A stretch of 64,000 bases of DNA. Origin: Thermoanaerobaculia bacterium. Its GTDB lineage: Bacteria; Acidobacteriota; Thermoanaerobaculia; UBA5066; Gp7-AA6. Each line of letters starts with the position of its first letter. Position 1 is the first letter of the stretch. The stretch is taken from contig JBBDKM010000057.1 of assembly GCA_040879385.1 (NCBI GenBank), positions 4,838-68,837 of the forward strand, read 5' to 3'. The position numbers were made by a program, and so were the translations under genes. Below the pieces are notes generated by a model that saw only the letters and a list, made by a program, of their open reading frames with translations, ran no database searches and was not told the DNA's origin. Shown piece after piece: positions 1-62,504 of the stretch.

Positions 1-621
1 CGGCTTCCGGCCCATCGTCTCGAAGAAGACCTTCCGCGCCAGCGTGTACCCGTTGGTCTGCAGGCCGACCGACGGGAGCCCCACGGCCACATCCCCGGCC
101 GCGATCCGCGAGCCGTCGAGGATCCGGTCGCGCTCGACGACGCCGACGATCGTGCCGGCCACGTCGTACTCGCCGGCCGCGTAGAACCCCGGCATCTCGG
201 CCGTCTCCCCGCCGAGAAGCGCCGTCGCGTTCTCCCGGCACGCGCGCGCGATCCCCTCGATCACGCTCTCGATGACGCCCGGCTCGACTTTCCCCGTCGC
301 GATGTAATCGAGGAAGAACAGCGGCTTCGCGCCCTGGACCAGGATGTCGTTGACGCAATGGTTCACGAGGTCCGCGCCGCACGTGTCGTGGCGGCCCATC
401 TCGAACGCCACCTTCAGCTTGGTCCCGACGCCGTCGGTGGAGGCGACGAGCACGGGCTCCCGGTACTTCGAGAAGTCCGGCCGGAACAGGCCCCCAAAGC
501 CGCCGACGTCGCCGAGCACGCCCGGCGTGAACGTCGAGCGGATGGCCGACTTCGCGCGAGCGAGCGCGGTGGCCTTCGCGTCGATGTCGACACCGGCTGC
601 CGCGTAGCGGGAGTCCTTCAA
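1..621 (-). CDS. purM: Phosphoribosylformylglycinamidine cyclo-ligase (AIR synthase), 3' end runs off the window
   Basis: Minus-strand translation (TTG)[30 protein letters not shown]...[10 protein letters not shown]...[24 protein letters not shown]...[11 protein letters not shown] matches PurM along its length. An in-frame stop lies immediately upstream of a TTG start at 621. Absent from the ORF track because it is open at the window edge. Confidence 0.88.
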
Positions 622-1071
622 GGCGTCCGATTATAGCCAGCGCGCCGCAGGATGACGCCCGCCGGCGTTTCGGCCGCCGGCTCGTAGCCGCGGCGGCACC
701 AATCCGCGAGCACGACCCCGCCGCCTCGTCGAACCACTCGATGATGTGGTGCAGATAGGGCGAAGCTGGGCGGAGGTCAAACAGCACATCCACGGCGCAG
801 ATCTCGGGCAGCACGAGCGCCCGCTCACCCGGGCGAAGCTCCCGCGCGAGAACCTCGAAGAACTGCGCCTGCGGGCCGTTCAAGAATACCTTGCCTCCAC
901 GGGTTGCGACGGGCCCCGCGCGATGGGAAACGCATTGTCTTGATGCCGGTCCAGGCGTACGGGACGGGCAGGCCCGTCGCCGCGAGGAAGTACGGCGACA
1001 GGCCCACAGGCCGACGGCCGTCGTGACTAGGATAAAAAGGAGCTGCGGGACCCGGTCGCGAGCCGGCAGCT

Positions 1072-2007
1072 TCATGGCGTTTCCGGCGACCCGTCCCCCG
1101 GCTTCCGGGCGATCGCGTAGACATTTCCGAGGGGCACTGACAGCGACACGCGTCCCAGGGCCCCGCCCCCGAGCAGCGCGAGAAGCGGCCCCTTCAGGAA
1201 TCCTGCCAGGGGAAGCAGCCGGAAGAGATAGCGCAGAGAATAGCGATTCCAAGCTGCCGCCACACGCTCCACCCGAAAGCCGCGCCGCTCGAAGAGTCGC
1301 CGGAGCGTCTGCGGCCCGAAGAGGTAAGTGTGCTCGACGTCCACGATCGGGCTCTCTTCCCCGAGCAAGCGCGCGGAGACGGCGTCTACATTGTGGTTCA
1401 GGCAGAGGACCAGGCCGCCGGATTTCAGCATCGTGAAGCATTCATCGAGCGCGGCCGCCGGGTCCGGAAGGTGATCGAGGACCTGGAAGAGACAGACGAC
1501 ATCGAAGCTCTCGGCTGGAAAGAGCCCAGGCCGGATGACGCCGACGAGGATGCGCGCGCGGATTGCCGCGTTGGCCCGCGCGACGGCCTCCGAGCTCGGC
1601 TCGACGCCGTGCGCGTCCGCGTACCCCTGGCGCAGAGCCTCCTCGAGAAAGAACCCGTTACCGCAGCCGATCTCGAGCAGAGACCCACGCCGCGCCCCGA
1701 AACGCTCGAGATCTCTCAGGTATCCGCCGTAGGTCGCTGCCAGGTTCTCGACTTCGTCTCCGTAGTCGAACGTGCTCCGCTCGTAAATCCGCGCGATCCC
1801 CTCGGGGTCGGCGGCCGGGTCCGAGCGAACCAGGCCGCACGAAAGGCATCTCACGAGCCGGTAGTGCATGCCGTCCGGCAAGCGGCGGGCCGAAAAGACC
1901 TCCGTGCTGAAGGCGTCGGGGGCGAGGCGCGCGGAATAGATCTCGGAGGCGTTGCCCAGGCTCCCGCAGATCGCGCAGCGGGTGGGCGCGAGCGCCGCGT
2001 CGGTCAT
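1072..2007 (-). CDS. Class I SAM-dependent methyltransferase with N-terminal Cys4 zinc-ribbon
   Basis: MTDAALAPTRCAICGS...CLSCG zinc ribbon, then LLEIGCGNGFF (motif I) and VVCLFQVLDHLPDP (motif II/III). ATG at 2007 overlaps the GT2 stop (ATGA). The 417-aa track ORF is an upstream over-extension. Confidence 0.8.
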   Translation of the reverse strand: MTDAALAPTRCAICGSLGNASEIYSARLAPDAFSTEVFSARRLPDGMHYRLVRCLSCGLVRSDPAADPEGIARIYERSTFDYGDEVENLAATYGGYLRDLERFGARRGSLLEIGCGNGFFLEEALRQGYADAHGVEPSSEAVARANAAIRARILVGVIRPGLFPAESFDVVCLFQVLDHLPDPAAALDECFTMLKSGGLVLCLNHNVDAVSARLLGEESPIVDVEHTYLFGPQTLRRLFERRGFRVERVAAAWNRYSLRYLFRLLPLAGFLKGPLLALLGGGALGRVSLSVPLGNVYAIARKPGDGSPETP

Positions 2008-2978
2008 TCCCGGGAGTCCGGCGTCTTTCCCGCGGGGGCGTTCCAGATGCTTTCCACGACGTAGGGCGGGCGCCGCTTGACCTCGTCGTAGATGTGCATC
2101 AGATAGGACCCGATGATGGAGAGGGACAGAAGCTGAATGCCGCCCAGAAACAGCATCAGGACGATGAGCGTTGTGAACCCGAGCGGCACGAGCTGCGGCG
2201 CGAAGATCCGCACGAGCACCTGTGCGACGATGGCGAGCAGCGAAGCGACGACGATCACGAAAGCCAGCACGTTGATGAAGTCGAGGGGAACGTAGGAGAA
2301 GGACAGGATCGCCTTCCGCGCCCACCCGATATTACGAAGCAGCGAGTTGGTCGACCGGCCGAACATCCGCTCGGGCCGCGTGTAGGGCACCCCCGTCTGC
2401 TCGAAGCCGGCCCAGGCTCGCAGGCCCCGGACGAACCGGTTGTTTTCCGGCAGGGCGTTCAGGACATCCACGACCCTTCGGTCGATCAGCGCGAAGTCTC
2501 CCGCATCGAGAGGCACGTTGACGTAGGAGACCGCCCGGAAGGCCCGGTAGAAGGCCTTGTACGCGGCATTCCAGAGCGCGCTCGCCTGCCGCCGGGTCCG
2601 AACGCCGTAGACGACGTCGAAGCCCTCGCGCCACTTCGCAAAAAACGCCGGGATCAGCTCGGGAGGGTCCTGCAGGTCGCCGTCGAGCAGGACGACGGCG
2701 TTGCCCGTCGCGATCCGCATTCCGCTGGTGAAGGCGTTCTGCGAGCCGAAGGAACGGGCATGGTTGACGACGACGACGCGGGGGTCGCGCGAGGCGAGAT
2801 CCTTGAGCACAGCCCGGGCATCGTCCGGGCTGCCGTCATTGACGAAGATGACCTCGTACTCCACTCCGAGGCCAGCGAAAACCGTCCGGAGGCGCTCGTA
2901 CATGATCGGAACGGCCGGCGCGTCCCGGTAACAGGCGATGACCGCGCTCAGTTTCGCGGACGCGGGCCGGGAGCTCAT
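2004..2978 (-). CDS. Family-2 glycosyltransferase, polyprenyl-phosphate sugar transferase (GtrB/ArnC/DPM1-like) with two C-terminal TM helices
   Basis: LSAVIACYRD...VIFVNDGSPDD...LLDGDLQDPPE (DXD region) and a C-terminal hydrophobic pair FVIVVASLLAIVAQVL / LIVLMLFLGGIQLLSLSIIGSY typical of the DPM1/ArnC/GtrB subfamily. ATG at 2978 overlaps the epimerase stop. Confidence 0.85.
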   Translation of the reverse strand: MSSRPASAKLSAVIACYRDAPAVPIMYERLRTVFAGLGVEYEVIFVNDGSPDDARAVLKDLASRDPRVVVVNHARSFGSQNAFTSGMRIATGNAVVLLDGDLQDPPELIPAFFAKWREGFDVVYGVRTRRQASALWNAAYKAFYRAFRAVSYVNVPLDAGDFALIDRRVVDVLNALPENNRFVRGLRAWAGFEQTGVPYTRPERMFGRSTNSLLRNIGWARKAILSFSYVPLDFINVLAFVIVVASLLAIVAQVLVRIFAPQLVPLGFTTLIVLMLFLGGIQLLSLSIIGSYLMHIYDEVKRRPPYVVESIWNAPAGKTPDSRE

Positions 2979-3982
2979 CGGCCGGCCGCGGCGGTTCGCG
3001 CCGTCTCGTTCGCGCGGCACCATTCGACCATGCGCCGAAAACCCTCCTCGAAGGTGTGCGCCGGGCGCCAGCCGAGATCGCGCTGGATCTTCCGCGCGTC
3101 GGCAACCCAGGTGCTCGTGTCCCACCGCCGATCCGGCATGGAGCCCCATTCGGGCTCGCACGTCAGGCCGAGCGCCCGGCGGGCAATCTCGACGGCCTCG
3201 CGGATCGACGTCTGCGTTCCCGTTCCCACGTTGTAGATCGCCCCGGCCTCGCCTCCCGGCGGGCGGGCCGCGGCCAGGAGATAGGCCCGGCACACGTCCT
3301 CGACCGACACATAGTCGCGCGCGATTTCCGGGTGGACGAGCGGGGGCAGCTTTCCGGCCAGTCCGCATCGGATCAGTGTCGGAATCAGCCGCCCCGGGTC
3401 CTCGTAGGGCCCGTAGACGGAGTAGAGGCGCAGCGTCGTGACGGCGAAGCCTTTGTTCTGCGCGACCCAGCGGCAATACATCGTCGCCGACGCCTTGGTG
3501 AGAGCGTACTCGCTGTTGGGCTCGAGCCAATCGTCTTCGGCCGGAGCGTGATCCTTGCAGCCGTATTCCGACGAGGATCCCGTGTTGACGACGCTCTCGA
3601 CGCCGGCCGCCTGGCAGGCCTGCAACAGATGCATCGTGCCGAGAACGTTGGTCTGTACCATCCGCTCGGCCGACTCCTGCCACGAGTAGGCTCCGTACAC
3701 GGCGCAGTGAAAGACCCGTTCGGGCCTCGCCTGGGCGACGACGCACTCGACGGATTCGCGGTCGCGGAGGTCTCCCTCGTAAATCCGCGCGTCGTCCCGG
3801 ATCGAGTCGATTCTCCACGTCTGATCGTGGCGGTGGGCCAGCAGGTGGACCTCGAAGCCCTCCCGCAGAAGGTGGCGCGCCAGGTTGGCGCCCACGAAAC
3901 CGGTGGCGCCCGTCACGAGCGCCCGCTTCGCGCTACTCACAGCGCTCGGCCACCTGGAGGTAGACCGCGCAGCCCGCCGCAT
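2975..3982 (-). CDS. NAD-dependent sugar epimerase/dehydratase (SDR family)
   Basis: ALVTGATGFVGANLARHLL (Rossmann GxxGxxG) and YALTKASATMY (catalytic YxxxK). Start is ATG 3982 or GTG 3940; either overlaps the upstream methyltransferase stop. Confidence 0.85.
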   Translation of the reverse strand: MRRAARSTSRWPSAVSSAKRALVTGATGFVGANLARHLLREGFEVHLLAHRHDQTWRIDSIRDDARIYEGDLRDRESVECVVAQARPERVFHCAVYGAYSWQESAERMVQTNVLGTMHLLQACQAAGVESVVNTGSSSEYGCKDHAPAEDDWLEPNSEYALTKASATMYCRWVAQNKGFAVTTLRLYSVYGPYEDPGRLIPTLIRCGLAGKLPPLVHPEIARDYVSVEDVCRAYLLAAARPPGGEAGAIYNVGTGTQTSIREAVEIARRALGLTCEPEWGSMPDRRWDTSTWVADARKIQRDLGWRPAHTFEEGFRRMVEWCRANETARTAAAGR

Positions 3983-4658
3983 TCAGGACGGGTGCGCGCT
4001 CGAGCGCGAGCTCGATCGACTTGAGGGCCCTGGCCAGCCAATCGGGGCAGAAGAAAGGCACGAGACCGACGTAGACCCTCGCGCGCACGACGCCGCCCAG
4101 CTCTCGCACCCACCGGTCGAGCACCGCCGGCGCGTAGGACTTCTCTCCGTGCTCCCGGTGATAGCGGGACAGTTTCTCGATGCACTTGAGCACGGGATTG
4201 TAGCCGTTGGGCTCGAGCACGATCAGGACCGGTGCCAGCCGGAAGGCTTCGCGCAGAACGTCCACCGGCCGCTCGAGGTGGTGGAGAACCCCTCGCAGAT
4301 GGGCGATGTCGAAGCTGCGATCCGGCAGGGGCACGGTGTAGGCGTCGTGCGCGGCGAACGTGATCGGCCGGCCCGCGATCTTCTGCCGGGCGACGGCGAT
4401 CGCCTCGCGAGCGGGATCGAACCCGTACATGCTTGCCGGCCGCCCCGCTTCGAACAGGTCGATGGTGTAGGTGCCGTCGCCGCACCCGACGTCGAGGATC
4501 CGCTTTCCCGTAAAGTCGGCGGCGGCCAGGGCCGCTTCGGTGAGCCTGCGGTTGGCGAGCTTGCTACTGAGCCTCGCGTTCGTCGTGTAGAGGTAGCCGC
4601 GGTTGTGGGTCGCGTCCCGATCGAACGCATCGACCGTGACGGCCGGCCGGCGGGTCAC
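3933..4658 (-). CDS. Class I SAM-dependent methyltransferase
   Basis: ILDVGCGDGTYT motif I and DIAHLRGVLHHLERP. GTG at 4658 overlaps the transketolase-C stop (GTGA). Forms the C-terminal third of the spurious 564-aa track ORF. Confidence 0.75.
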   Translation of the reverse strand: MTRRPAVTVDAFDRDATHNRGYLYTTNARLSSKLANRRLTEAALAAADFTGKRILDVGCGDGTYTIDLFEAGRPASMYGFDPAREAIAVARQKIAGRPITFAAHDAYTVPLPDRSFDIAHLRGVLHHLERPVDVLREAFRLAPVLIVLEPNGYNPVLKCIEKLSRYHREHGEKSYAPAVLDRWVRELGGVVRARVYVGLVPFFCPDWLARALKSIELALERAPVLNAAGCAVYLQVAERCE

Positions 4659-5584
4659 CCGGCGACCATTTGCAACGTCTGCAGGGCCGTGGCGACGATC
4701 GATTCCCTGGAAAGGCCGTGCACCCGCTGCATGTATTCCTGCCCTCCAAAGGGCGCACTCGGGACCGTCCGGACTCCGCACCGCACCAAGCGGCACGGCA
4801 GCCGGTGCTCGGCGATGATCTCCGCCACGAGCGAGCCCAGGCCCCCGGTCACGCAATGCGCCTCGACGGTGATCGCGAGCGGAACGCGAGAAAGCTCCGC
4901 GACGAGGTCCTCGACGGGCGGCGGGGTCACGCTGGCGACGACGACGGCCGAGCACGAAACGCCCTGGCGGGCCAGGTCGTCGGCCGCTGCCGCGGCCTCG
5001 CTCGAAATCGCGCCCATCGCAATGAGCGCCAGGTCGCTGCCCTCGCGAATCCGCTGCGCCCGGCCGATTGCAAAGCGACCCCCCAGTCCCGGGACCGTCG
5101 TCTCGTCGTCCTTTCCGATGCGGTAATAGACGGGACCCGGAAGGTCCCAGGTGGCCCGGAACGCGGAGCGCGCCTGCTCGTGATCGGCCGGTGCCAGACA
5201 GGTGATGCCTGGCTGGGCGCGCATCAGCGCCACGTCCTCCAGGCCATAGTGCGTCGGGCCGGCGTGGCCGTACTCGAATCCCCCACCCACGCCGACGATG
5301 CGTACCGGCAACTGGTGAAAGATCGGCCCGTTGCGAATGAACTCGTAAGGACGCAGCGACGCAAAAGTCGCGATGGAGTAGACAAACGGCAGAAACCCGG
5401 CTTCGGCCAGGCCGGTCGCTACCCCCACCATGTTCTGCTCCGCGACACCGACGTTGAAAAAACGATCGGGGAAGCGGTCGGCAAACGGCTCGAGCACGCT
5501 GTAGCCCAGATCTCCGGTCAAAAGGAGCACGCGCCGATCCGCCTCGGCCAACTCCAGGAGCGTCCGAACGAACGCGGCTCTCAC
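4655..5584 (-). CDS. Transketolase, C-terminal (pyrimidine-binding) subunit of a split transketolase
   Basis: MRAAFVRTLLELAEAD...FNVGVAEQNMVGVATGLAEAGFLPFVYSIATF...GPTHYGLEDVALMRAQPG match the Pyr and C-terminal domains of the two-subunit transketolase family. Confidence 0.9.
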   Translation of the reverse strand: MRAAFVRTLLELAEADRRVLLLTGDLGYSVLEPFADRFPDRFFNVGVAEQNMVGVATGLAEAGFLPFVYSIATFASLRPYEFIRNGPIFHQLPVRIVGVGGGFEYGHAGPTHYGLEDVALMRAQPGITCLAPADHEQARSAFRATWDLPGPVYYRIGKDDETTVPGLGGRFAIGRAQRIREGSDLALIAMGAISSEAAAAADDLARQGVSCSAVVVASVTPPPVEDLVAELSRVPLAITVEAHCVTGGLGSLVAEIIAEHRLPCRLVRCGVRTVPSAPFGGQEYMQRVHGLSRESIVATALQTLQMVAG

Positions 5585-6405
5585 GACGCTTCCTCGACCT
5601 CGCGGAGGGCTTGCCGGAACTCGTCATCGGACATCGGCCAATAGTGCCACTTGATCTTTCCTTCCATGAAGGACACGCCCTTGCCGAATCGCGTGCGGGC
5701 GACGAGGACGTGCGGCGAGCCGGCCGGATCGAGCCGGTCGACCGTTTCCGCGAGGGCCGCGACGTCGTGCCCGTCGACCTCGTGCACGTCCCAGCCGAAG
5801 GCCCTCCAGCGAGGCGCCATGGGCGTCAGGGACAAGACGTCCTCGGTGTACCCGAAGGCCTGCTGGCCGTTCAAGTCCACGATTGCAACGAGGTTGCCGA
5901 GGCGGTGATGCGCGGCGAACATGACCGCTTCCCACAGCGAGCCCTCGTTGCATTCGGCGTCGCTCACGAGGACGAAGACTCGTCGGGAAGACCCCTGCAG
6001 CCGGGCGGCCAGCGCGGCCCCGGCGCCGATGGAGAGGCCGTGTCCGAGCGACCCGGTCGAGAACTCCACGCCGGGCAGGGTGTGCTCCGGATGGACGCCC
6101 ACGTCGCTGCCGTCCGCGCAGAACGTGTCGAGGGCTTCGGCGGTCAGCCAGTCCTTGAGCCGGAGTGCGGCGTACAGCGCGAGAGCGGCGTGTCCCTTCG
6201 AGAGGATGAAGCGGTCGCGCTCGGGATCGGCCGGACCGTCTCCCCGGAGGATCCCACCGTAGAGCGCGGCGACGATGTCGGCGATGGACAGGGCGGACCC
6301 GATGTGCCCGACATGCGCTCTCTTGGACTGCTCCAGAACAATGCGACGGATCTGCCGCGGCGAGAGGGTTCCCTTCTGCACGTTCGGTTGCTTCGATCTT
6401 AACAT
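5581..6405 (-). CDS. Transketolase, N-terminal (ThDP-binding) subunit
   Basis: GHIGSALSIADIVAALY...SKGHAALALYAAL...GSLGHGLSIGAGAAL...VSDAECNEGSLWEA (ThDP/Mg motif). Start taken at internal ATG 6405 (MLRSKQ...). Overlaps the C-subunit start by 4 nt. Confidence 0.9.
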   Translation of the reverse strand: MLRSKQPNVQKGTLSPRQIRRIVLEQSKRAHVGHIGSALSIADIVAALYGGILRGDGPADPERDRFILSKGHAALALYAALRLKDWLTAEALDTFCADGSDVGVHPEHTLPGVEFSTGSLGHGLSIGAGAALAARLQGSSRRVFVLVSDAECNEGSLWEAVMFAAHHRLGNLVAIVDLNGQQAFGYTEDVLSLTPMAPRWRAFGWDVHEVDGHDVAALAETVDRLDPAGSPHVLVARTRFGKGVSFMEGKIKWHYWPMSDDEFRQALREVEEAS

Positions 6406-6416
6406 GCGGCCGACAT

Positions 6417-8168
6417 TCAACGGCTCGGCAACGAAGAGACGGGCGTTTCCCTCGGACGAAAAATCGCACCGCCGCGCAGGTTCGCGACGGGGCGGTAACG
6501 ACTCTCGATCCATGCCGCGAGCCGCAGACCGAAGCCCCGTCCAAACTGCTCGACGCCGAACTCCTGCGCCGGCCGGTCGAAAATGACGATGACGTCCGGA
6601 GGCCGCGTTTCAAACCGTCGAATCAGCACCTCCTCCGCGTGGGCGTCCAGCCAGCCCGGCATGTGGCCAAGAAAAGGCGAGGCGTCGTGGACGCCGAACA
6701 GGACATCGAGGCCGCTGGTCTCCGGGAGAAAGAGCGCTCGCTCCCCGGGACGCAGCTCCTGTCCGATTCGGGCGTAGAGGTTTCCGAGGCGCCTGTCCGG
6801 AAAGATGTCGCCCCGCAGCGTCGCAACAGGGACCCTGCCTTCCTCTCTCAAGCTTTCAATCCCATTGGCCGCCCAATACCAGGCCATGGGAAGCAGAACG
6901 AGCGTCCACACCAATCGGGCCCAGCGGGCGGAGGAGGAACCCCCCGGAAGCCGATCGGGAACCAGACACAGCAGGAGGAGGAGCCAGGTCAGACAGGTCG
7001 CAAAGTGGGACACACCACTGTATGGGCTGGCGAGGTCCCGGGAAACGGCCGTGCGCAGAGCGACGAGGCCCGCGAAGAGACCGAAACCGATGAAAAAGTC
7101 GCGTCCGGGCCTCCTCTTGTCGAACCAGGCGAGGAGCACGACCGCAAAAGCCGCCGTCATCGACAGACAGATCGGGTGGACCTGCGGCAGGAGACTGCGG
7201 CCCCGAAACAGATCCGCCGTACAGAGAAGCGCCAGCGGACCCAGGGTCAGCCACCAGCGTTTCTTGCTCTTCTCCCGCGCGAGGCACAGCCCGGCCAGAG
7301 ACACGAGGAGGATCAGCTTCGACAGCTCCCACGCCGAATTGAACAGGGCTTCGCGCCAGTCTACCGTGGCGAAGCCCGCGACCTTTCGGGACAGCAGCCG
7401 CCATTCCGGTGGCATCGACGCCATCGGCCAGAGGTGGCTGTCCTGCCTCAGAGAATCCAGGGAAGCGCCGGCGCCGAGCACGATGACCACTCCGAGGGAA
7501 GCTGCGGCGGAAAAGCCGACGAGACAGCGGAACACCCACGCCACACCTTTCTTGCCGTCCGTGACCAGAGGAGCGCAGAGCCCGAGGATCGCCGCCAGCC
7601 CGATCTCCTGCTTCGCGCACAACGCCAGCCCCGCCAGGATCCCTGCCGCGTACGCGCGCCAGAGCCCGCGTTCGCGCGATGGCATGAGCAGAAAGGCCCC
7701 GATGGAGAAGCAGAGCGCATGAACGGCCGCAGGACTGTACGGGAGGATCATTCGCGCCGGCCGAGGCGCGAGCACCGACAAACCGACGATGAGCCCGACG
7801 AGCGCGAGCCGATCCAGGCGAGAAAGAAACGGCCGGGCCGCAGCCAGGAGGAGAAGCCCGGCGACAATCGCGGGAATCCAGTTGGCGAGGAGATACCAGG
7901 TCAGCGAGAACCCGAAGGGCTTTCCCGTGGCTGAGAACAGGAGTGGCGAGAGCGGCCCGTACTGAATATAGAGGTCCCGATACAACCGCTCCCCTTGCGC
8001 CATCCGCTGAGCGAACGACAACCAGACTCCCGGATCACCCGTCGTGTCGAGCCATCGTCCTCCGGCCCAAATCCCGGCCGCCGAGGTAGCGGCCAGAAAC
8101 GTCAGCTCGACGCTCCAGTCGCGCAGCCACTCGAGGGCCCGACGCGCCCTGCCGGGCTGTTCGCTCAA
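6417..8168 (-). CDS. Polytopic membrane protein, putative GT-C-fold glycosyltransferase with C-terminal soluble domain (paralog 1)
   Basis: More than 10 predicted TM helices. First loop GERLYRDLYIQYGPLSPLLFSA. C-terminal domain VIVIFDRPAQEFGVEQFGRGFG...AAWIESRY. TTG start overlaps the paralog-2 stop (TTGA). Family assignment is an inference from topology and operon context. Confidence 0.5.
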   Translation of the reverse strand: MSEQPGRARRALEWLRDWSVELTFLAATSAAGIWAGGRWLDTTGDPGVWLSFAQRMAQGERLYRDLYIQYGPLSPLLFSATGKPFGFSLTWYLLANWIPAIVAGLLLLAAARPFLSRLDRLALVGLIVGLSVLAPRPARMILPYSPAAVHALCFSIGAFLLMPSRERGLWRAYAAGILAGLALCAKQEIGLAAILGLCAPLVTDGKKGVAWVFRCLVGFSAAASLGVVIVLGAGASLDSLRQDSHLWPMASMPPEWRLLSRKVAGFATVDWREALFNSAWELSKLILLVSLAGLCLAREKSKKRWWLTLGPLALLCTADLFRGRSLLPQVHPICLSMTAAFAVVLLAWFDKRRPGRDFFIGFGLFAGLVALRTAVSRDLASPYSGVSHFATCLTWLLLLLCLVPDRLPGGSSSARWARLVWTLVLLPMAWYWAANGIESLREEGRVPVATLRGDIFPDRRLGNLYARIGQELRPGERALFLPETSGLDVLFGVHDASPFLGHMPGWLDAHAEEVLIRRFETRPPDVIVIFDRPAQEFGVEQFGRGFGLRLAAWIESRYRPVANLRGGAIFRPRETPVSSLPSR

Positions 8169-9883
8169 GAGCCCGCCCCTCGAAAGGCCACGAAGACCTC
8201 GGCCCCCGTGACCCGAACCGGGCGCCGGGCGTAGTGCTCCTCGATCCAGGTGCGCGTCCGCTGCCCGTATCCCTGTCCGAAGAATCCACGCCCGTACTCG
8301 CCCGCCGGTCGTTTCACGATGACGATGACGGCCGGCCGCGCGCGCTCCAACTCCCCGATGAAGTCGCTCTCGTTCGACTCCGTCAGGTAGCCCGGGATCG
8401 AGATCTTGCGTCGCATCGGATTCGGGCGTCCGGCGAGAAAATTGACGACGCCGCCTTCGGGAATCACGACGAGCCCATCGCCCTCTCGTGTCTCCGCGCG
8501 CACCGCCGCGGCCACCGTCGTCAGCTCACCGGCCGTCGACGGGAGCGCGGACAGCATGCCGCCGGTTCCCGGCACTGGCACGCGGTCATCGGCGGCGTAC
8601 TGCATCGTCCGACCCAGGAAGGAGATGGCGATGAGAGTAGCGAGCGCACCGTCCAGGGCCGCCCGGAACCGGACGCGCACGAGCCGCTTCGTCTCCCCAG
8701 CCACGAGGACCCGCAGCAAGCCGGCCGCACACACGATGGCAATCAGGAGAGGCGGCGCCACGTAACCCGCGTCGGCGATGTGAAAGAGCCTTCGATGAGA
8801 AGCCAGCAATCCCAGGCACCCGAAGGCAACCAGGGCCGCGGCTCGCGGGCCTCGCCGCCGGACCAGGCCGGCCCCCAGGGCCAGGAGACAGAACGACGGC
8901 GCCGCGCTGAAGACGACGGCGCCCGACCCGGCACCGACCGCCGCGAGAATCAGGAGGCCCAAGAGAACGACCACCAGCCGCCGGAGCCAGCGCGCGGCCT
9001 CTGCCGGATGGGTGCCACGGGCGGCGAGCGCCCCGGCGAGCGAGATCGCGCCGATCCAGAGCGCGGTCGAGTACAAGAGAAGCGGAATGCCGTCGCGCCA
9101 ACCCCGGAAGACCGACAGCACCGACCCGACCGGCGTCTCCGCGGGGATCCCGACCAGCAACACGGGCGCCTCCCGCAGGAGTGCCGCCGGACCGGCAGCC
9201 GCAGCGAACCCTCCCAGCGTTGCGGCGAACGCCAGTGCGGCCACCCCCGCGATCCGGAGGGCCTCTCGGCGGAAGCCGCCGCGGGACCGGAGCCGGACCC
9301 ACACGGCCGCGAGCACCGACACGAGGGCGATCACGCCCCATTCGGTGCGGCAGAGTCCCGCAAGGCCGACGCAGACGCCCGCCGCCACATTCCTCCCCAT
9401 CGCGCGCCCGGAGCCGGTCCCCGAGGCGAGCCCGCACGCAACGAGCGCGAAGCCCGCGGGATGCCAGATCCGGTATCCCATGCCCAGGATGGCGCCGCCC
9501 GAGTTGGGCATGAAGACGAGAGTCGGGACGGCCAGCGCGGTCCACAGCGAGGCCCCGCGCCGATCGGTCAGTTGTCGCAAAGCGAAATGCAGGGCCGCCA
9601 GAACACCGCAGGCCCCCGCGGCTCCGGAGAACGCCAACGTCGAAAAGCTCGATCCAAGGAGACGAAAGAAAACCGACTGGAAATACGGCGTGAACGGACC
9701 GAACCAGTACACGACGTCCCGATAGAGCAGCGCGCCGCCCGCCAGGGCATCCGCATACAGCCACTCTGTGCCGGAATCGATGAGCGCATCGGACCACTTG
9801 CCGCGGGAAACGAGGAAGAGCGCGGCGGTCGCGGCCGCCGCTGCGCAGACGAAAACGGCCGCCGCCGTCCGCCCGCGCCTCAC
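8165..9883 (-). CDS. Polytopic membrane protein, putative GT-C-fold glycosyltransferase (paralog 2 of 6417..8168)
   Basis: Similar in size and architecture to the downstream gene: GALLYRDVVYWFGPFTPYFQSVFF loop and C-terminal VIVIVKRPAGEYGRGFFGQGYG...TWIEEHY. GTG at 9883 overlaps the kynU stop (GTGA). The 1010-aa track ORF is an over-extension through kynU in another frame. Confidence 0.5.
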   Translation of the reverse strand: MRRGRTAAAVFVCAAAAATAALFLVSRGKWSDALIDSGTEWLYADALAGGALLYRDVVYWFGPFTPYFQSVFFRLLGSSFSTLAFSGAAGACGVLAALHFALRQLTDRRGASLWTALAVPTLVFMPNSGGAILGMGYRIWHPAGFALVACGLASGTGSGRAMGRNVAAGVCVGLAGLCRTEWGVIALVSVLAAVWVRLRSRGGFRREALRIAGVAALAFAATLGGFAAAAGPAALLREAPVLLVGIPAETPVGSVLSVFRGWRDGIPLLLYSTALWIGAISLAGALAARGTHPAEAARWLRRLVVVLLGLLILAAVGAGSGAVVFSAAPSFCLLALGAGLVRRRGPRAAALVAFGCLGLLASHRRLFHIADAGYVAPPLLIAIVCAAGLLRVLVAGETKRLVRVRFRAALDGALATLIAISFLGRTMQYAADDRVPVPGTGGMLSALPSTAGELTTVAAAVRAETREGDGLVVIPEGGVVNFLAGRPNPMRRKISIPGYLTESNESDFIGELERARPAVIVIVKRPAGEYGRGFFGQGYGQRTRTWIEEHYARRPVRVTGAEVFVAFRGAGS

Positions 9884-11082
9884 GTCACCACGGCCGGCCG
9901 GTCGAGCCAGCGGCGCCAGGCTCCGGTAGCGCGGATCTCGTCGATCGCCGCGAACGCCCGGTCGAGCTCGGCGTCCTCCGTGTAGAAGTGCGGGGCCATG
10001 CGAATCCCGACTCCCGGCCGGTAGTCCACGACGACGTCCCGAGCGTTCAACTCGCGCGAGACCTCGAGCGCATTGTCGAAATCGACCGAGGCCGTGCCGG
10101 CCCGGCGGCGCGGGTCGCGAGGCGTCGAGGAACGGAAGCCGCGCGCCTCGGCGAGCGCGATCAGCCGTCCGGTCTGCCGAAGCGATTTCTCGCGAATCGC
10201 CTCGAGGCCCGCCCGCCGCACGATGCGCGGGCCCTCGCGAGCCGCGTAGAGAGCGGGCACCGCCGGCGTGCCGAGAAGAAAACGGAAGGCGTCCTGGCGG
10301 TAGCGCATGGGAGGCGCCTCGAAGGAGAACGGGGCCGGATGGGCCATCCAGCCGGTCAGCGCCGGCGTCAGGCGGGCTCGCAGCTCCGGACGCACATAGA
10401 GGAACGCGCCTCCGGGGCCGCCGCAGAGCCACTTCAGGACGCCGCCGACGAGGACATCCGCGCCGAGCGCCTCGACGTCCACGGGCAGCGTCCCGACCGA
10501 CTGATACGCGTCGAGCGCGAAGAGGGAGCCTGCCCGGCGGCACTTTTCGGCTATCGCCGCCGCATCGAGGACGAAGGCGCTCTTGAAGAGGACGTGCGAA
10601 ACCGCGACGAGCGCCGTCCGGTCGTCGATCGCGTCGCGGATCCGCTCCTCGTCGGCCGAGAGCCCGTCGCCTCCCGGCGAGGGCACGGTCACGACCTCGG
10701 CGCCGAGCCGGCGCCCGAGCGACTCGTAGACGTACCGGATCGAGGGGAATTCTCCCTCGGCCATCACGATGCGATTCCGGGGACCCGAGTAATCGAGACA
10801 CGACATCAGCACGGCCGACGCCGTGGTCACGTTCGGGAGCATCGAGACGGTTCCGGGACTCGCGCCGAAGAGCGGCGCGATCTCGTCCCCCACGGCGACG
10901 GACATCTCCCACCAGGAGTCCGCCCAGGCGCGCACGCCGCGAGTGGCCCAGGTCCCGGCGTACTCGGCGAGCGCCGCGGCGGCCGCTCGCGGCATCGCTC
11001 CGAGCGAGTTGGAAATGAGGTAGGTCGAGCTTTCGAGGATCGGAAACTCGGAGCGGTGGCGCAGGAGCGGATCGGAGGCCAT
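9880..11082 (-). CDS. kynU: Kynureninase-family PLP-dependent hydrolase
   Basis: DPLLRHRSEFPILESSTYLISNSLGAMP, WWEMSVAVGDEIAPLFGA and VLVGGVLKWLCGGPGGAFLYVRPE (PLP-lysine region) align with bacterial kynureninase (for example the YLDGNSLGARP and CTYKYLNGGPG regions of the Pseudomonas enzyme). Confidence 0.75.
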   Translation of the reverse strand: MASDPLLRHRSEFPILESSTYLISNSLGAMPRAAAAALAEYAGTWATRGVRAWADSWWEMSVAVGDEIAPLFGASPGTVSMLPNVTTASAVLMSCLDYSGPRNRIVMAEGEFPSIRYVYESLGRRLGAEVVTVPSPGGDGLSADEERIRDAIDDRTALVAVSHVLFKSAFVLDAAAIAEKCRRAGSLFALDAYQSVGTLPVDVEALGADVLVGGVLKWLCGGPGGAFLYVRPELRARLTPALTGWMAHPAPFSFEAPPMRYRQDAFRFLLGTPAVPALYAAREGPRIVRRAGLEAIREKSLRQTGRLIALAEARGFRSSTPRDPRRRAGTASVDFDNALEVSRELNARDVVVDYRPGVGIRMAPHFYTEDAELDRAFAAIDEIRATGAWRRWLDRPAVVT

Positions 11083-11271
11083 CAGCGTTCCGCGGCGCGG
11101 ACGGGCTGGCCGTTCTTGTACACGATCCGGCCGCCGGAGACGACGAGCAGAGAGTTGGGGACAGGCGGCGCGCCCGTCCCATCGATGAGTGTGGCACCCC
11201 GGATGGCGATCACCGCGGCCAGGTCGCTCGATCCGCGCAAAGCGGGCACGTTCGGGCGGGCGGGCGAAACG

Positions 11272-12675
11272 CTACTTCGCGTCGAGCGCGTGTTCCTTCT
11301 CGCGCTCCTCGTCCTCGATCTCGACCGGGTAGATGCCGGTGAAGCAGGCCGTGCAGGTCGCCTGCTGCGGCCGGCCGAAGGCTTCGAGCATGCCCTCGAC
11401 GGAGAGGTAGCCGAGTGAATCCGCCTCGATGAACTTGCGGATCTCCTCGACGGACTGGTTGGCCGCGATGAGCTCGCTCCGGGTCGGCGTGTCGATCCCG
11501 TAGTGGCAGGAGTTGACCGTCGGCGGAGAGGAGACGCGCACGTGGACCTCGCGCGCCCCCGCCTCGCGGAGCATCCGGACGATCTTGCGCGACGTCGTCC
11601 CGCGCACGATCGAATCGTCCACGAGAACGATGCGCTTGCCCTCCACGACCTCGCGCACCGGGTTCAGCTTGACCTTGACGCCGAAGTGGCGGATGGCCTG
11701 CTTGGGCTCGATGAAGGTGCGCCCGACGTAGTGATTGCGCACGAGGCCGAGCGTGAACGGGATCCCCGACTCCTCGGCGTAGCCGAGGGCGGGGTACATG
11801 CCGGAGTCCGGCACCGCGACGACGACGTCCGCCTGCGCCGGATGCTCCTTCGCCAGGCGCCGCCCGAAACCCTGCCGCGAGGCCGCGACGCTGCGCCCGA
11901 AGACCATGGAGTCCGGCCGCGCGAAGTAGACGTGCTCGAAAACGCAGGGCGTCGAGACGGGGAAGGCGAACCGGTGCGAGGAGAATCCCTCGCGCGAGAG
12001 TTTGACGATCTCGCCGGCCTCGACGTCCCGCTCGAAGCGCGCGCCGATGAGGTCGAAGGCGCACGTCTCGGAGGCGACCACCGGCGAGCCTTCCCGCACG
12101 CCGAGCGACAGCGGCCGGATCCCGTTGGGGTCGCGCGCGGCGAAGATGCCCTCGCGCGACAGGATCACCAGCGAGTAAGCCCCGCGCACTTCGAGAAGCG
12201 CGTCGGCGATGGCGCCGGTGAGCGTGGGCGCCTGGGAGCGGGCCACCAGGTGAAGGATCACCTCCGAGTCGGAGGTCGTCGTGAACAGCGCGCCTTTCGA
12301 CTCGAGCACCGCCCGGATCTCGCGGGCGTTGACGAGGTTCCCGTTGTGGGCGAGCGCGAGAGGGCCGCGCCCGGTGGCGAAGACGATCGGCTGGGCATTC
12401 TCGAGGAGCGAGGCGCCGGCCGTCGAGTAGCGCACGTGGCCGATCGCGGTCCTGCCGGGGACGCGCGAAAGCCTTGCCTCGTCAAAGACATCCGCGACGT
12501 AGCCCATCTCGCGCTCGACCCGGATCCGGCCCTCGTCGAGCGCGGCGATCCCCGCCGACTCCTGGCCCCGGTGCTGGAGGGCGTAGAGGCCGAGGTAGGC
12601 GAGATTGGCGGCGTCCTCCGAATCGCAGACTCCGAAGACTCCGCATTCGTCGGAGAAGCCACTCCGATTAGCCAT
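11272..12675 (-). CDS. purF: Amidophosphoribosyltransferase
   Basis: Propeptide MANRSGFSDE then catalytic CGVFGV. GATase-II and PRTase domains (VVAVPDSG, IVLVDDSIVRGTTS). C-terminal CxxC iron-sulfur ligands. Confidence 0.95.
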   Translation of the reverse strand: MANRSGFSDECGVFGVCDSEDAANLAYLGLYALQHRGQESAGIAALDEGRIRVEREMGYVADVFDEARLSRVPGRTAIGHVRYSTAGASLLENAQPIVFATGRGPLALAHNGNLVNAREIRAVLESKGALFTTTSDSEVILHLVARSQAPTLTGAIADALLEVRGAYSLVILSREGIFAARDPNGIRPLSLGVREGSPVVASETCAFDLIGARFERDVEAGEIVKLSREGFSSHRFAFPVSTPCVFEHVYFARPDSMVFGRSVAASRQGFGRRLAKEHPAQADVVVAVPDSGMYPALGYAEESGIPFTLGLVRNHYVGRTFIEPKQAIRHFGVKVKLNPVREVVEGKRIVLVDDSIVRGTTSRKIVRMLREAGAREVHVRVSSPPTVNSCHYGIDTPTRSELIAANQSVEEIRKFIEADSLGYLSVEGMLEAFGRPQQATCTACFTGIYPVEIEDEEREKEHALDAK

Positions 12676-12730
12676 TGGAAACCAATCTTAACACTCGAAC
12701 CGCGGGGGTTAATCCCGCGGCGGCGTCCGG

Positions 12731-13585
12731 CTACGCGTCCGGGATCCGCGTCGCCGTTTCGAGGCTCGCGCCTTGCGGAATGCCGGCGAGCCATTCGGGA
12801 TACGGCCAGTCCGACGGCTGCAGAAGCAGATGACAGCGGCCGCGGTTCGCGAGGAGCTCGGGACCGGTCAGCCGCGTCCCCCGCGCGAGGTACCAGGCGA
12901 AGTAGCCGAGCTCATCGCACCAGCGCAGCACGCGGGCGGCGTTCTCGACCATGGGCAGCTCCGGATTCGAGTGCATCTCGACGAGGAAGCGCGTCTGCCG
13001 GCGCCGCGCACAGCCGCGGCCGCCCGCGAGGACCAGCGCCTCGGCGCCCTCCACGTCGACTTTCACGAAGTCGGGGAACAGGCCATAGGTGACCTCGAGC
13101 CGGTCGAGGGTGATCGTGGGAACGTCCATCGAAAGGCCCGCCTTCGCGGCCGATTGCGCATGACCCGGGTACATGCTTCCCGCCGCGCCCGTTCCGACCG
13201 TCCAGAGCCGCACGCGATCGCCCGCGCGGTCCGACACGAAGGCGCAGACGAAGCGCACTCTCTCGGACAGGCGGTTGCGAACGATGTTCTCGGCGGCAAT
13301 GGCAAGAGCCTCGGCGTTCGGCTCGACGAGCAGCAGGTCCGTGACGCCGGGCGACGCGAGCTCCAGGAGGGCCGCCTGCCCCATGTTCGAGCCGACGTCG
13401 AAGATGACCCTCGCGCGCATCGAGCAGGCGAGCAGCCAGGCATCGTCGTAATCGGGGGACTCGCGGACCACCGAGTCTCGCACCACGAGAGGCATTCCGA
13501 GCAGCGTTTCCCTCCGGAGAGGCGCCGGCAGCCGGGCTACCCGGCGCAGAAGACTCGACGCTCTCGAAAGCGGCGTACGGGTCAT
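12731..13585 (-). CDS. FkbM-family methyltransferase
   Basis: VIFDVGSNMGQAAL and KVDVEGAEALVLAGG motifs characteristic of FkbM-domain methyltransferases. Confidence 0.8.
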   Translation of the reverse strand: MTRTPLSRASSLLRRVARLPAPLRRETLLGMPLVVRDSVVRESPDYDDAWLLACSMRARVIFDVGSNMGQAALLELASPGVTDLLLVEPNAEALAIAAENIVRNRLSERVRFVCAFVSDRAGDRVRLWTVGTGAAGSMYPGHAQSAAKAGLSMDVPTITLDRLEVTYGLFPDFVKVDVEGAEALVLAGGRGCARRRQTRFLVEMHSNPELPMVENAARVLRWCDELGYFAWYLARGTRLTGPELLANRGRCHLLLQPSDWPYPEWLAGIPQGASLETATRIPDA

Positions 13586-13683
13586 GCGTCCCCCCTCTTC
13601 TCCGCCGGTCGTAACGGTCCGGGGTCATGCTAGCACTCAACCGTAATCCGCGGACGGCGGCGCTCGTCCAATTCCCCGAGGTG

Positions 13684-15345: not shown

Positions 15346-15356
15346 GCAGGACGAAC

Positions 15357-16598
15357 ATGTTCGATCGTCGGATCTTCCTCAAGTCCTCCAGCCTGGCTCT
15401 CATTGGCGGCGGGCTACTGCCCAGCGTCTTCGTCCGCATGGCGCAAGCCGGCGCACCGGGAAGCCGCCGCGTCCTCGTCGCGATCTTTCAGCGGGGCGCC
15501 GTCGACGGCTTGAACGTTCTCGTGCCCTACGGAGAGAAGGCCTACTACGACGCGCGGCCGACGATCGCCGTCCCGCGACCGGGCGCGGCCGGGAAATCGG
15601 CGCTCGATCTCGACGGCTTCTTCGGGCTCCACCCGTCGCTTTCTCCGCTGCTCCCGTTTTTCCGCGACCGGTCGGCGGCCTTCGTCCACGCCGTTGGCAG
15701 CCCGGATGCGACCCGCTCGCATTTCGACGCGCAGGACTTCATGGAGTCCGGCACCCCCGGCGTCAAGTCCACACGGGACGGGTTCCTTTCGCGGGCTCTG
15801 GCCGAAAGCGTCACGAAGGCTTCCCCTCTCCGCGCGGTCGCCATGGCGCCGGCAATGCCGCGGATCCTGGCCGGAGCGTCCGGCGCGATCGCGCTGACGA
15901 GCCTCGAGGGATTCGGCATCCGCGCCGGCGCCGCCAGCGATCCGGCCGCGGAGTCCTTCGAGTCCATGTACGCGGGTGCGGCCGCCGGCGCCCTGCGGGC
16001 CACGGCCAAAGAGTCCTTCGAGGCCGTGCGACTCGTGCGGTCGGCCGACCCCTCGAAGATCTCGGCTGCGAACGGCGCCGACTATCCGCGCGGCCCCCTC
16101 GGACAATCCCTGAAACAGATCGCCCAGCTCGTCAAGGCAGACGTGGGGCTGGAGGTTGCGTTCACCGACGTCGGCGGTTGGGACACGCACGCGGGCGAGG
16201 GCGGCGGCGAGGGGCAGCTTGCCAACCGGTTGCGCGACTTTGGCCTCTCGATCGCGGCGTTCGCGAAGGATCTCGGCTCGAAAATGGCGGACGTCACGCT
16301 CGTCACGATGTCGGAGTTCGGCCGAACGGTGAAGGAGAACGGCAACCGCGGCACGGACCACGGCCACGCCAACGTCATGATGCTCCTCGGCGGAGACGTG
16401 AAAGGCGGAAAGATCTACGGGCGCTGGCCGGGGCTCGACGCCGCGCATCTTTACGAGAACCGCGACGTCGCGGTCACCACCGATTTCCGGGACGTCTTCG
16501 CGGAAGTGCTGGCCAAGCGAGCGGGGGTGGCGGACCTCGAACGAGTCTTTCCGGGTTACGACTGTGACGAAGGCAAGCGTCTGGGGTTGATCGCGTAA
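15357..16598 (+). CDS. DUF1501 domain protein (Tat-signal, sulfatase/phosphatase-like fold)
   Basis: Twin-arginine signal DRRIFLKSSSLALIGGG. DVGGWDTHAGEG and GTDHGHANVMMLLGGDVKGG are typical DUF1501 motifs. Standard DUF1800/DUF1501 gene pair. Confidence 0.85.
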   Translation: MFDRRIFLKSSSLALIGGGLLPSVFVRMAQAGAPGSRRVLVAIFQRGAVDGLNVLVPYGEKAYYDARPTIAVPRPGAAGKSALDLDGFFGLHPSLSPLLPFFRDRSAAFVHAVGSPDATRSHFDAQDFMESGTPGVKSTRDGFLSRALAESVTKASPLRAVAMAPAMPRILAGASGAIALTSLEGFGIRAGAASDPAAESFESMYAGAAAGALRATAKESFEAVRLVRSADPSKISAANGADYPRGPLGQSLKQIAQLVKADVGLEVAFTDVGGWDTHAGEGGGEGQLANRLRDFGLSIAAFAKDLGSKMADVTLVTMSEFGRTVKENGNRGTDHGHANVMMLLGGDVKGGKIYGRWPGLDAAHLYENRDVAVTTDFRDVFAEVLAKRAGVADLERVFPGYDCDEGKRLGLIA

Positions 16599-20434: not shown

Positions 20435-20460
20435 GGAGTTGGCGTAATCCTACCTTCAGC

Positions 20461-38375: not shown

Positions 38376-38379
38376 GCTG

Positions 38380-62474: not shown

Positions 62475-62504
62475 AACACTCGCAACGCTCATGAATCGTC
62501 TGGC

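Follow-up and report, generated by a model that had tools for sequence, protein, structure and literature searches.

Lipid-carrier-dependent addition of single sugars, as carried out by the Gtr, Arn, Pgf and CsbB/YfhO systems, decorates the lipopolysaccharide (LPS), teichoic acids and proteins of bacteria, and to our knowledge the donor sugars in the described systems are ordinary or aminated ones. For miharamycin and amipurimycin, a route to branched sugars has been proposed in which an oxidoreductase is followed by a split-gene transketolase that places a hydroxyacetyl unit on a keto sugar, and a bioinformatic survey found 13 such transketolases, in Streptomycetes only (PMC12247030). We describe here a string of nine minus-strand genes, g1 to g9 (Table 1), in a 64,000-nucleotide stretch of the Thermoanaerobaculia (Acidobacteriota) contig JBBDKM010000057.1, assembly GCA_040879385.1, which is referred to below as the window. 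Judged from the sequences, the string probably specifies a periplasmic glycosylation system that depends on a lipid carrier and has been put together from separable parts. In it the lipid-linked sugar would be oxidised, C2-branched or extended, and methylated, this tailoring perhaps following the loading of the sugar onto its carrier. An earlier, sequence-only reading of the window did not recognise the gene combination as a described pathway, and in the literature that we searched no published description of the cassette considered below was found.

Recurrence of the cassette and composition of the locus

We define as the cassette the six genes for the N and C subunits of a transketolase-like enzyme (TKN and TKC; g4 and g5), a short-chain dehydrogenase/reductase (SDR; g7), a GtrB-type family 2 glycosyltransferase (GT2; g8) and two S-adenosylmethionine (SAM) methyltransferases (MT1 and MT2; g9 and g6). 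All six were present on contig L037 (42% GC), where their order differs, radical-SAM genes lie among them and a PMT_2 gene is adjacent; their products were 72% (TKN), 70% (TKC), 65% (GT2), 63% (MT2), 59% (SDR) and 52% (MT1) identical to those of the window. A search anchored on GT2 recovered the cassette without MT2, in the order TKN-TKC-GT2-MT1...SDR, from a Latescibacterota metagenome-assembled genome (MAG; L119) and from an Armatimonadota contig, and GT2-MT1-MT2-SDR was seen at a contig edge in a Dormibacterota MAG. Two divergent 821-aa PMT_2-TPR proteins adjoin the Latescibacterota cassette (L119 positions 877-5811 and 10892-13447).

These distant loci also hold genes that have no counterpart in the cassette as defined. 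Between TKC and GT2 of L037 (10944-13977) are a radical-SAM gene, a B12-binding radical-SAM gene and a small gene of 159 codons, and further B12-radical-SAM and SPASM genes lie downstream; the inserts suggest yet more elaborate tailoring. In L119 an 851-aa protein, with a weak biotin/lipoyl-domain match only, is encoded between MT1 and SDR.

Loci anchored on the transketolase numbered 84, of which 80 came from a metagenome scan with a TKC alignment and the others were contigs L034 to L037. A GT2 of the g8 type was found in 31 of the 84 (class A), most of these proteins being 62-73% identical to g8 and usually accompanied by MT1, MT2 and SDR; the GC content of class A loci ranged from 0.39 to 0.74. 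A further 33 of the 84 loci (class B) carried a short GT2 or a DUF4915 protein, and no locus belonged to both classes. The gene directly following TKC was a cassette member in 49 of the 52 metagenome-scan loci that extended at least 900 nt beyond TKC, and SDR was present in 12 of the 15 loci with ample flanks. Class B represents a sister cassette with the composition TKN-TKC-short GT2 (~230 aa)-DUF4915-Sulfotransfer_3-SDR, which we observed in the cultured cyanobacterium Leptothermofonsia sichuanensis E412 (CP072600, L034), in Chloroflexota, where it adjoins Wzm/Wzt genes, in Pyrinomonadaceae and in 30 metagenome loci. Its proteins were 66-70% (TKC), 72-76% (TKN) and 57-60% (SDR) identical to those of the window, and the literature searched contained no mention of DUF4915.

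Transketolase and SDR were thus kept as a pair across phyla even where the remaining cassette differed, and the TKC homologues in other phyla, at 66-70% identity, were always inside glycan-type cassettes. A tblastn search of plasmids returned distant transketolases only, at most 41% identical. By comparative genomics, then, the six genes are shown to be conserved as a set across distant lineages, in which they appear to have moved as a unit. The sequence-only reading had linked the transketolase and methyltransferase genes to those for glycosyltransferases, and this neighbourhood comparison bears it out, since transketolase, SDR and methyltransferases recur with GT2 across distant lineages, gene orders and contexts.

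Closer to the window we used tblastn of the window proteins against 27 related loci and six contigs retrieved through exact protein matches; all of these sequences, or nearly all, are from Thermoanaerobaculia/Acidobacteriota. The sampled Thermoanaerobaculia loci share a recurring scaffold, purF-GT-C-GT-C-purM, in which two genes for polytopic glycosyltransferases of the GT-C fold lie between purine genes, and five of the loci (L022, L026, L029, L030 and L033) have little or nothing beyond the GT-C pair between the pur genes. The block TKN-TKC-MT2-SDR-GT2-MT1 occurs as a unit in a subclade of 10 loci (L001, L002, L005-L008, L010-L013), where its identity to the window is 57-88% (99-100% in L005/L006) and the GT-C genes are mostly less conserved (47-64%). 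In the other loci that contain it purF is 82-94% identical, and the position of purM is conserved where purM is present. Elsewhere the scaffold holds alternative inserts, either GT2 with a methyltransferase or a UDP-glucose dehydrogenase with an epimerase, a methyltransferase and a short GT2. From these sequence comparisons the cluster is best described as a composite of a lineage-wide GT-C scaffold, a cross-lineage cassette that is one of several inserts, and g1. The earlier reading treated it as a single operon; the gene string itself is real, but it combines the purF-GT-C-GT-C-purM scaffold, the cassette insert and an independently varying g1. With the GT-C genes fixed between purF and purM while donor cassettes vary, the site looks like a hotspot for diversification of surface glycans.

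One Thermoanaerobaculia-like contig, P0007 (Logan ERR12037362, 6635 nt), is informative about the substructure of the cassette. TK and SDR are both missing from it, while GT-C, MT2, GT2, MT1 and a PMT_2 gene are retained, and TK and SDR therefore behave as a sub-module. Its GT2 is 88% identical to g8, as compared with 86-88% for the GT2s of TK-bearing relatives. A g3-like GT-C and MT2 are joined in P0007 in a single 867-aa open reading frame (ORF), with a linker of ~45 residues, which could be a real fusion or an assembly frameshift. Among the g3 homologues of 800-870 aa, the C-terminal extension matches a window protein (MT2) only in P0007; domain fusions were considered for the others and rejected, the extensions matching no window protein and having the low-complexity appearance of read-through tails.

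Glycosyltransferases, transketolase-like pair and accompanying enzymes

The family calls made earlier for seven of the genes agree with our Pfam and NCBIfam profile searches. In g8, which has a Glycos_transf_2 domain (Pfam), the match to Synechocystis GtrB (5EKP) runs from residues 6-313 on 24-331, with the C-terminal membrane region included, at 230 bits (E=3e-67), and the match to ArnC is lower, at 138 bits. Among NCBIfam models the best was PgfS (NF047588; 224 bits, below the cutoff of 500), and the ArnC equivalog NF007986 gave 142 bits, below its cutoff of 529. The original GtrB/ArnC/DPM1-like call is supported as GtrB/ArnC-type; by its sequence g8 belongs with the GtrB-type enzymes, which charge undecaprenyl phosphate (Und-P) with a sugar taken from a nucleotide sugar.

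For g2 and g3 the family assignment was reached through homologues and predicted structures. Of the g3 homologues listed, about one third have a PF13231 (PMT_2) domain and some bear the name glycosyltransferase family 39; g2 aligned with a profile of the g3 family at an hhalign probability of 99.85% across 502 columns. AlphaFold (AF2) models had mean confidence values (pLDDT) of 93 for g3 and 79 for g2. Foldseek matched the g3 model to STT3, DPY19, ArnT, AftA, PglB, AftD and ALG9/12, and the best matches of the g2 model were AglB, ArnT, DPY19, STT3, AftA and PglB; the top 19-24 PDB matches of the two models were all GT-C proteins, each with a probability of 1.00 and with TM-scores of 0.29-0.54. 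Following the first transmembrane segment of the g3 family (65 sequences), D45 is nearly invariant and R64-D65 invariant, and g2 keeps D36 and D56 as the equivalents of the conserved acidic residues. Conserved acidic residues in the predicted first periplasmic loop fit the GT-C pattern, and a catalytic role for them is putative. Because of the PMT_2 homologues, the hhalign comparison, the models with their Foldseek matches and these acidic residues, the claim of tandem GT-C paralogues holds, and g2 and g3 are, as modelled, GT-C-fold transferases. The earlier description of them as two polytopic GT-C-like proteins stands with regard to fold; a direct profile match forms no part of its support. 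Enzymes with the GT-C fold use polyprenyl-phosphate-linked donors at the outer face of the membrane, a point taken here from family and fold assignment.

A third GT-C gene appears to have been lost from the window. In the 450-bp gap between the g9 stop (1072) and the purM start (~621) is a decayed remnant that is 46% identical (56 bits) to g3 residues 447-511, as found by tblastn at the corresponding site of L005/L006. The g9 stop shares 4 nt with an ATG at 1075, from which an open frame runs into the remnant. In relatives an intact PMT_2 gene of 606-608 codons follows MT1, with purM on its other side in the P0135 contig.

The transketolase-like pair was assigned from Transketolase_N in g4 (E=1.8e-38) and Transket_pyr plus Transketolase_C in g5 (Pfam), and the closest solved structure is the split-gene transketolase of Carboxydothermus hydrogenoformans (ChTK; 205 bits for g4 against 6YAK and 193 bits for g5 against 6YAJ). 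Against the transketolase equivalog NF004559 the N subunit scored 256 bits and the C subunit 185 bits; the cutoff of 488 was set for a fused 627-aa protein and therefore cannot be reached by either half alone. Residues are numbered below as in the transketolase EcTK, and this numbering was mapped onto g5 through the ChTK alignment, motif spacing and the EcTK motif. The residues that bind thiamine diphosphate (ThDP) and metal, together with the catalytic histidines (EcTK H26, H66, H100, H261 and H473), aligned and were at least 90% conserved in the subfamily. The GDG motif for ThDP has become S-D-A/G in 64 of 64 N subunits examined (L034-L117), with the metal-binding Asp and Asn kept; in g4 itself it is SDA, at residues 148-150 of the 274-aa form.

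The substrate side of the active site is altered. Positions equivalent to EcTK H461, D469 and R520 are occupied by G, A and K in g5, S385 is variable, and R358 and H473 are kept. We observed in a 23-member subfamily alignment that the G (at H461) and the K (at R520) are invariant and the A (at D469) is nearly so, and over 120 subfamily members the wider motifs GGGFEYG and GKDD are at least 90% conserved. Residues of the R358/S385/H461/D469/R520 type serve in acceptor and phosphate binding (PMC7661550; also the established transketolase literature). Only R358 of this sugar-phosphate- and acceptor-binding set is kept in the window pair, which in this respect is not a canonical transketolase. The pattern of residues fits an enzyme in which the ThDP-bound two-carbon intermediate would still be formed and a small sugar phosphate acceptor would no longer be bound.

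The SDR (g7) belongs to the Epimerase family (E=7e-54), its nearest structures being MoeE5 and UDP-Glc 4-epimerases, and it is 57-60% identical to the SDRs that accompany the transketolase in cyanobacteria, Chloroflexota and Pyrinomonadaceae. Its motif is SSSEYG, unlike the dehydratase motif (S)TDEVYG; by sequence g7 looks epimerase- or oxidase-like, and not 4,6-dehydratase-like. The methyltransferases, both of class I, fall into Methyltransf_11/25/31 (g6) and Methyltransf_23 (g9) by Pfam. Residues 5-247 of g9, including the Cys-rich N-terminus, aligned weakly (E=4e-5) with the sugar 3-C-methyltransferase 4RV9, and the protein may thus have, with weak resemblance only, the Cys-rich N-terminus and methyltransferase layout of a sugar C-methyltransferase.

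The remaining gene, g1, had been labelled kynU. Its product contains Aminotran_5 and KYNU_C domains, and its best PDB match is the kynureninase of P. fluorescens (1QZ9; 142 bits, full-length, with the pyridoxal phosphate (PLP) lysine aligned), but the label fell below the curated threshold for kynureninase (TIGR01814, 127 bits against a cutoff of 246). No match to the KynA or KynB families was found among 29 ORFs scanned, which cover part of those in the 64-kb window. g1 occurs without the TK block in L018, L027 and L032 and is absent from the TK-bearing P0135 contig; in L001, L002, L010 and L012 (~7.7-8.9 kb) and in L031 (8057-8203) it is represented by two or three out-of-frame pieces or a short remnant, so that it appears to be decaying in these relatives or to be affected by frameshift errors in the assemblies. 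Because it is present without the TK block and fragmented or absent with it, g1 is not an obligatory partner, and it is most likely a bystander to the glycosylation function. We considered g1 as an ArnB-like amino donor for the sugar and rejected this, the protein being kynureninase-like and not DegT-like and varying independently of the cassette.

Proposed chemistry and its alternatives

In the scheme that we favour, g8 would load a common UDP-hexose onto Und-P, and the SDR would oxidise one hydroxyl of the sugar to a ketone. The transketolase-like enzyme would form dihydroxyethyl-ThDP from a ketose or hydroxypyruvate-type donor, an intermediate that is probably still made because the ThDP and catalytic histidine residues are kept, and would transfer these two carbons, as a hydroxyacetyl unit, to the oxidised sugar. 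Methylation of the product by both methyltransferases would follow, a flippase encoded elsewhere would flip the lipid-linked sugar, and g2 and g3 would transfer the sugar to an envelope acceptor, which may be LPS/lipid A, a surface protein or another glycan. Both the chemistry and the acceptor are what we infer from the sequences. That a sugar is chain-extended or branched and then methylated, as the sequence-only reading also supposed, is suggested by the changes in the transketolase active site and the joint loss of TK and SDR; and LPS is a possible acceptor because of a GT9 heptosyltransferase elsewhere in the window (62475-63482, plus strand), which indicates an LPS inner core.

The stage at which tailoring takes place is the point on which the strongest competitor differs. 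All of it could be done on the nucleotide sugar, with the SDR producing a UDP-keto-sugar that the transketolase branches and the methyltransferases methylate before g8 loads Und-P, by the logic of Arn, YerE or miharamycin. We regard this as less likely, while noting that g7, as an extended SDR, and MT1, in its layout, are similar to enzymes of nucleotide sugars and that an Actinoplanes exopolysaccharide cluster has split transketolase genes beside DegT aminotransferases, which act on nucleoside diphosphate-keto sugars. One paper on that cluster noted the split genes without assigning them a role, and every described case of sugar branching by a ThDP enzyme uses a nucleotide-linked keto sugar (PMC12247030). 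Set against these points is the P0007 contig. Its GT2, with no TK or SDR beside it, resembles g8 as closely as do the GT2s of TK-bearing relatives, which would be unexpected if GT2 recognised a TK-modified sugar; the argument is a weak one drawn from a single contig, and it slightly favours tailoring after loading.

Other explanations concern the transketolase itself or the coherence of the cluster. The position between purF and purM would suit a housekeeping pentose-phosphate enzyme that supplies ribose 5-phosphate and phosphoribosyl pyrophosphate for PurF, beside what would then be an ordinary Gtr-like glucosylation unit, and split-gene transketolases can indeed be active enzymes, that of Carboxydothermus being one (PMC7661550). 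Yet three or four of the residues that bind phosphate or acceptor differ, in a way that is conserved throughout the subfamily; the same transketolase travels with GT2, methyltransferase and SDR in loci where no pur gene is seen nearby; many purF-GT-C-GT-C-purM scaffolds of Thermoanaerobaculia have no transketolase; and in P0007 TK and SDR are lost together. A housekeeping role is for these reasons very improbable. Little better is the prospect that TK and SDR act on free sugar phosphates or small metabolites, such as a rare tetrose, pentose or octulose precursor, so that the link to glycosyltransferases is one of metabolic supply only. Specialised split transketolases do exist in catabolism, as in the sulfoquinovose transketolase pathway, and an anionic group might still be bound by R358 and the Lys that replaces R520, but in the lineages examined no cassette includes a kinase, isomerase or nucleotidyltransferase, and TKC is in nearly all cases followed directly by GT2 or another member of the cassette; we consider this improbable. 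That the nine genes are mere neighbours in one transcription unit, as compact genomes can place unrelated functions in one operon and as g1 and the pur genes seem unrelated to the rest, we find barely credible in view of the recurrence of the six-gene set, with changed gene order, in loci of unrelated context and differing GC content.

Several observations weigh against the favoured scheme of oxidation, branching and methylation of a carrier-linked sugar. Neither g2 nor g3 has a direct match in Pfam or NCBIfam, and the TM-scores of their models to solved GT-C structures are moderate, at 0.41-0.54. No GtrA, ArnE/F or Wzx-type flippase was found by Pfam among the nine cluster proteins, and an additional flippase gene would not fit between the nine, whose junctions are either overlaps or gaps of no more than 35 nt; nor does the cluster contain a nucleotidyltransferase gene. 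Co-transcription of the nine genes is something that we infer from the overlaps only. In several TK-cassette relatives of the L001 type the g2 position is taken by a 367-aa ORF unrelated to g2, and in most other class A loci the polytopic neighbours showed no Pfam match and no similarity to g2/g3 detectable by BLAST, HMM or single-sequence hhalign, apart from a weak match to the C-terminal domain in L051. As the polytopic neighbours elsewhere are not detectably related, the evidence for GT-C partnership outside Thermoanaerobaculia comes from L037 and L119, and we have rejected a universal GT-C partnership of the class A cassette. Finally, even in the miharamycin/amipurimycin precedent, transketolase branching of keto sugars is unproven in vitro (PMC12247030).

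Beyond the window, we put forward tentatively, as a possibility of distinctly lower standing, that the transketolase-like pair and SDR constitute a glycan-tailoring carboligase that adds hydroxyacetyl to a lipid- or nucleotide-linked keto sugar. A widespread route, unrecognised until now, would then lead to envelope sugars that are C-branched or chain-extended in Acidobacteriota, Latescibacterota, Armatimonadota, Cyanobacteria, Chloroflexota and other mostly uncultured lineages, and these sugars would be methylated where the cassette is of the GtrB type and sulfated where it is the DUF4915 one. If true, ThDP-dependent carbon-carbon bonding together with methylation would extend the known chemistry of bacterial surface glycans; split-gene transketolases as sugar-branching enzymes, so far proposed for a few Streptomyces antibiotics, would gain their first envelope-glycan setting; and a role would be found for many "transketolase" annotations that are probably inflating pentose-phosphate calls in metagenome-based metabolic models.

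Gene models, neighbouring genes and described systems

The region 1072-11082 is filled by the nine genes, with overlapping or near-abutting junctions, as judged from the ORF listing, inspection of start codons and GC content by codon position. The earlier count of nine minus-strand genes was therefore correct at its coordinates, and codon-position GC backs the reading frames. The same gene models appear in independent calls on public contigs 99-100% identical to the window (L005/L006), one near-identical contig being JBBEBB010000022.1 of the Thermoanaerobaculia MAG GCA_040882545.1. Coupling of all the genes by 4-nt start/stop overlaps, as first described, applies without ambiguity to six junctions (g1/g2, g2/g3, g4/g5, g5/g6, g7/g8 and g8/g9); the g6/g7 overlap is 8 nt, and at g3/g4 a 4-nt overlap requires a TTG start, public calls using ATG at 6405 (11-nt gap) or GTG at 6381 (35-nt gap).

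Table 1. Positions of the cluster genes, their flanks and the related sister cassette (window coordinates unless a contig is named)
Feature	Position	Strand	Description
g1	11082-9880	-	kynureninase-family, class-V-fold PLP enzyme, 400 aa; physically first in gene string
g2	9883-8165	-	putative GT-C-fold polytopic glycosyltransferase, paralogue of g3, 572 aa; GTG start
g3	8168-6417	-	putative GT-C-fold polytopic glycosyltransferase, 583 aa; TTG start
g4 (TKN)	6420 (TTG) or 6405 (ATG)-5581	-	transketolase-like ThDP enzyme, N (PP-domain) subunit
g5 (TKC)	5584-4655	-	transketolase-like ThDP enzyme, Pyr+C subunit, 309 aa
g6 (MT2)	4658-3933	-	class I SAM methyltransferase, 241 aa
g7 (SDR)	3940-2975	-	extended SDR, nucleotide-sugar epimerase/oxidoreductase type, 321 aa
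g8 (GT2)	2978-2004	-	GtrB/ArnC-type polyprenyl-phosphate glycosyltransferase, 324 aa; C-terminal membrane region
g9 (MT1)	2007-1072	-	SAM methyltransferase, N-terminal CxxC...CxxC segment, 311 aa
Third GT-C gene, decayed remnant	719-913	-	part of C-terminal periplasmic domain only; between g9 and purM
purF	11272-12675	-	upstream flank, outside system; GATase_6/7 + Pribosyltran in identical contig
purM, 5' part	1-621	-	downstream flank, outside system, runs off window; AIRS/AIRS_C in identical contig
Sister cassette	L034 8201-13831; L035 8154-13779; L036 8210-18547		TKN-TKC-short GT2-DUF4915-Sulfotransfer_3-SDR

The cluster is not free-standing, having purF on one side and purM on the other; in the identical contig purM is followed by a Formyl_trans_N gene, which is purN. 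The GC content of the window is ~69%. At third codon positions it is 0.92-0.96 for purM and purF (1-630 and 11272-12687), as against ~0.75-0.90 for the nine cluster genes, a difference that would fit either weaker expression or a more recent arrival of the inserted genes. Scans of the locus for promoters and terminators gave results at chance level and were uninformative, and positions 1-14000 of the window contained no Rfam match, hence no thiamine pyrophosphate or purine riboswitch.

Farther from the cluster, an FkbM-type methyltransferase gene (Methyltransf_21; 12731-13585, minus strand) lies just upstream of purF; it is called in L005 and was not seen in the gene listings returned for relatives. 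A DUF1800/DUF1501 pair (13627-16598, plus strand) diverges from the purF side and keeps its position in L001, L002, L005 and the P0135 contig. An NTP_transf_2/Polbeta and HepT-like (HEPN) pair (~16925-17742, minus strand, mapped from L005 427-1244), which looks like a toxin-antitoxin module, separates the DUF1501 gene from a Ser/Thr kinase gene. There are two large Ser/Thr kinases fused to PD40/WD40-like beta-propeller repeats (17777-20449 and 35814-38387, both minus strand), with TonB-dependent receptor genes near them (29109-32981 and 38896-41358). Since purL lies at 41762-44701 (minus strand), the purine genes are scattered over the window and do not form a single operon.

Of the described systems, Gtr (GtrA/GtrB/GtrC) shares with this locus a cytoplasmic polyprenyl-phosphate sugar synthase, to which g8 is similar over its full length, and a polytopic periplasmic transferase. 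The locus differs in having no gene for a GtrA-type flippase and in its transferases, which are two PMT_2/GT39-like GT-C paralogues and are set beside GtrC by description; and Gtr has no counterpart of the four tailoring genes, namely the transketolase-like pair, the SDR and the two methyltransferases as these are grouped here. With Arn (PmrF) are shared an ArnC-like GT2 (138-142 bits), the presence of ArnT among the best structural matches of g2 and g3, and a sugar-oxidising enzyme of SDR type, and ArnD provides there a precedent for tailoring at the Und-P-sugar stage. Among the nine proteins, however, there is no match to a formyltransferase, DegT aminotransferase, deformylase or small flippase (ArnA, ArnB, ArnD, ArnE/F); the score of g8 lies below the ArnC equivalog cutoff, the ArnA decarboxylase has no equivalent, and ThDP-dependent carbon-carbon chemistry and methylation would replace amination and formylation. 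The Pgf system of Streptococcus mutans (PgfS, PgfE, PgfM1, PgfM2) combines a single GT2, an SDR of epimerase type and a pair of polytopic membrane proteins, as does the present locus, and PgfS is the best NCBIfam match of g8, below the cutoff; it is without a transketolase-like enzyme and methyltransferases, the present host is a Gram-negative acidobacterium, and the membrane proteins are likened by layout alone.

With regard to the transketolase-like pair, the Carboxydothermus enzyme (6YAK/6YAJ) has the same two-chain architecture, the same ThDP/metal ligands (Asp and Asn) and the same catalytic histidines, but it keeps the canonical R358, S385, D469 and R520 (PMC7661550), whereas in the window pair H461, D469 and R520 are replaced by G, A and K, S385 is variable and GDG has become SDA. 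The miharamycin and amipurimycin clusters are likened by gene pairing: a split-gene transketolase is accompanied there by an oxidoreductase that would make the keto acceptor (PMC12247030), and here by the SDR. Those, however, are Streptomycete secondary-metabolite clusters that handle nucleoside- or nucleotide-linked sugars, whereas the pair described here accompanies GtrB-type and GT-C enzymes in envelope-type clusters of several Gram-negative phyla. YerE, which acts in the formation of LPS branched sugars, is a ThDP enzyme of the decarboxylase superfamily and not of the transketolase superfamily. We would class the finding as a variant of lipid-carrier glycosylation of the Gtr/Arn/Pgf type, one that has a widespread, undescribed cassette of transketolase-like, SDR and methyltransferase genes.

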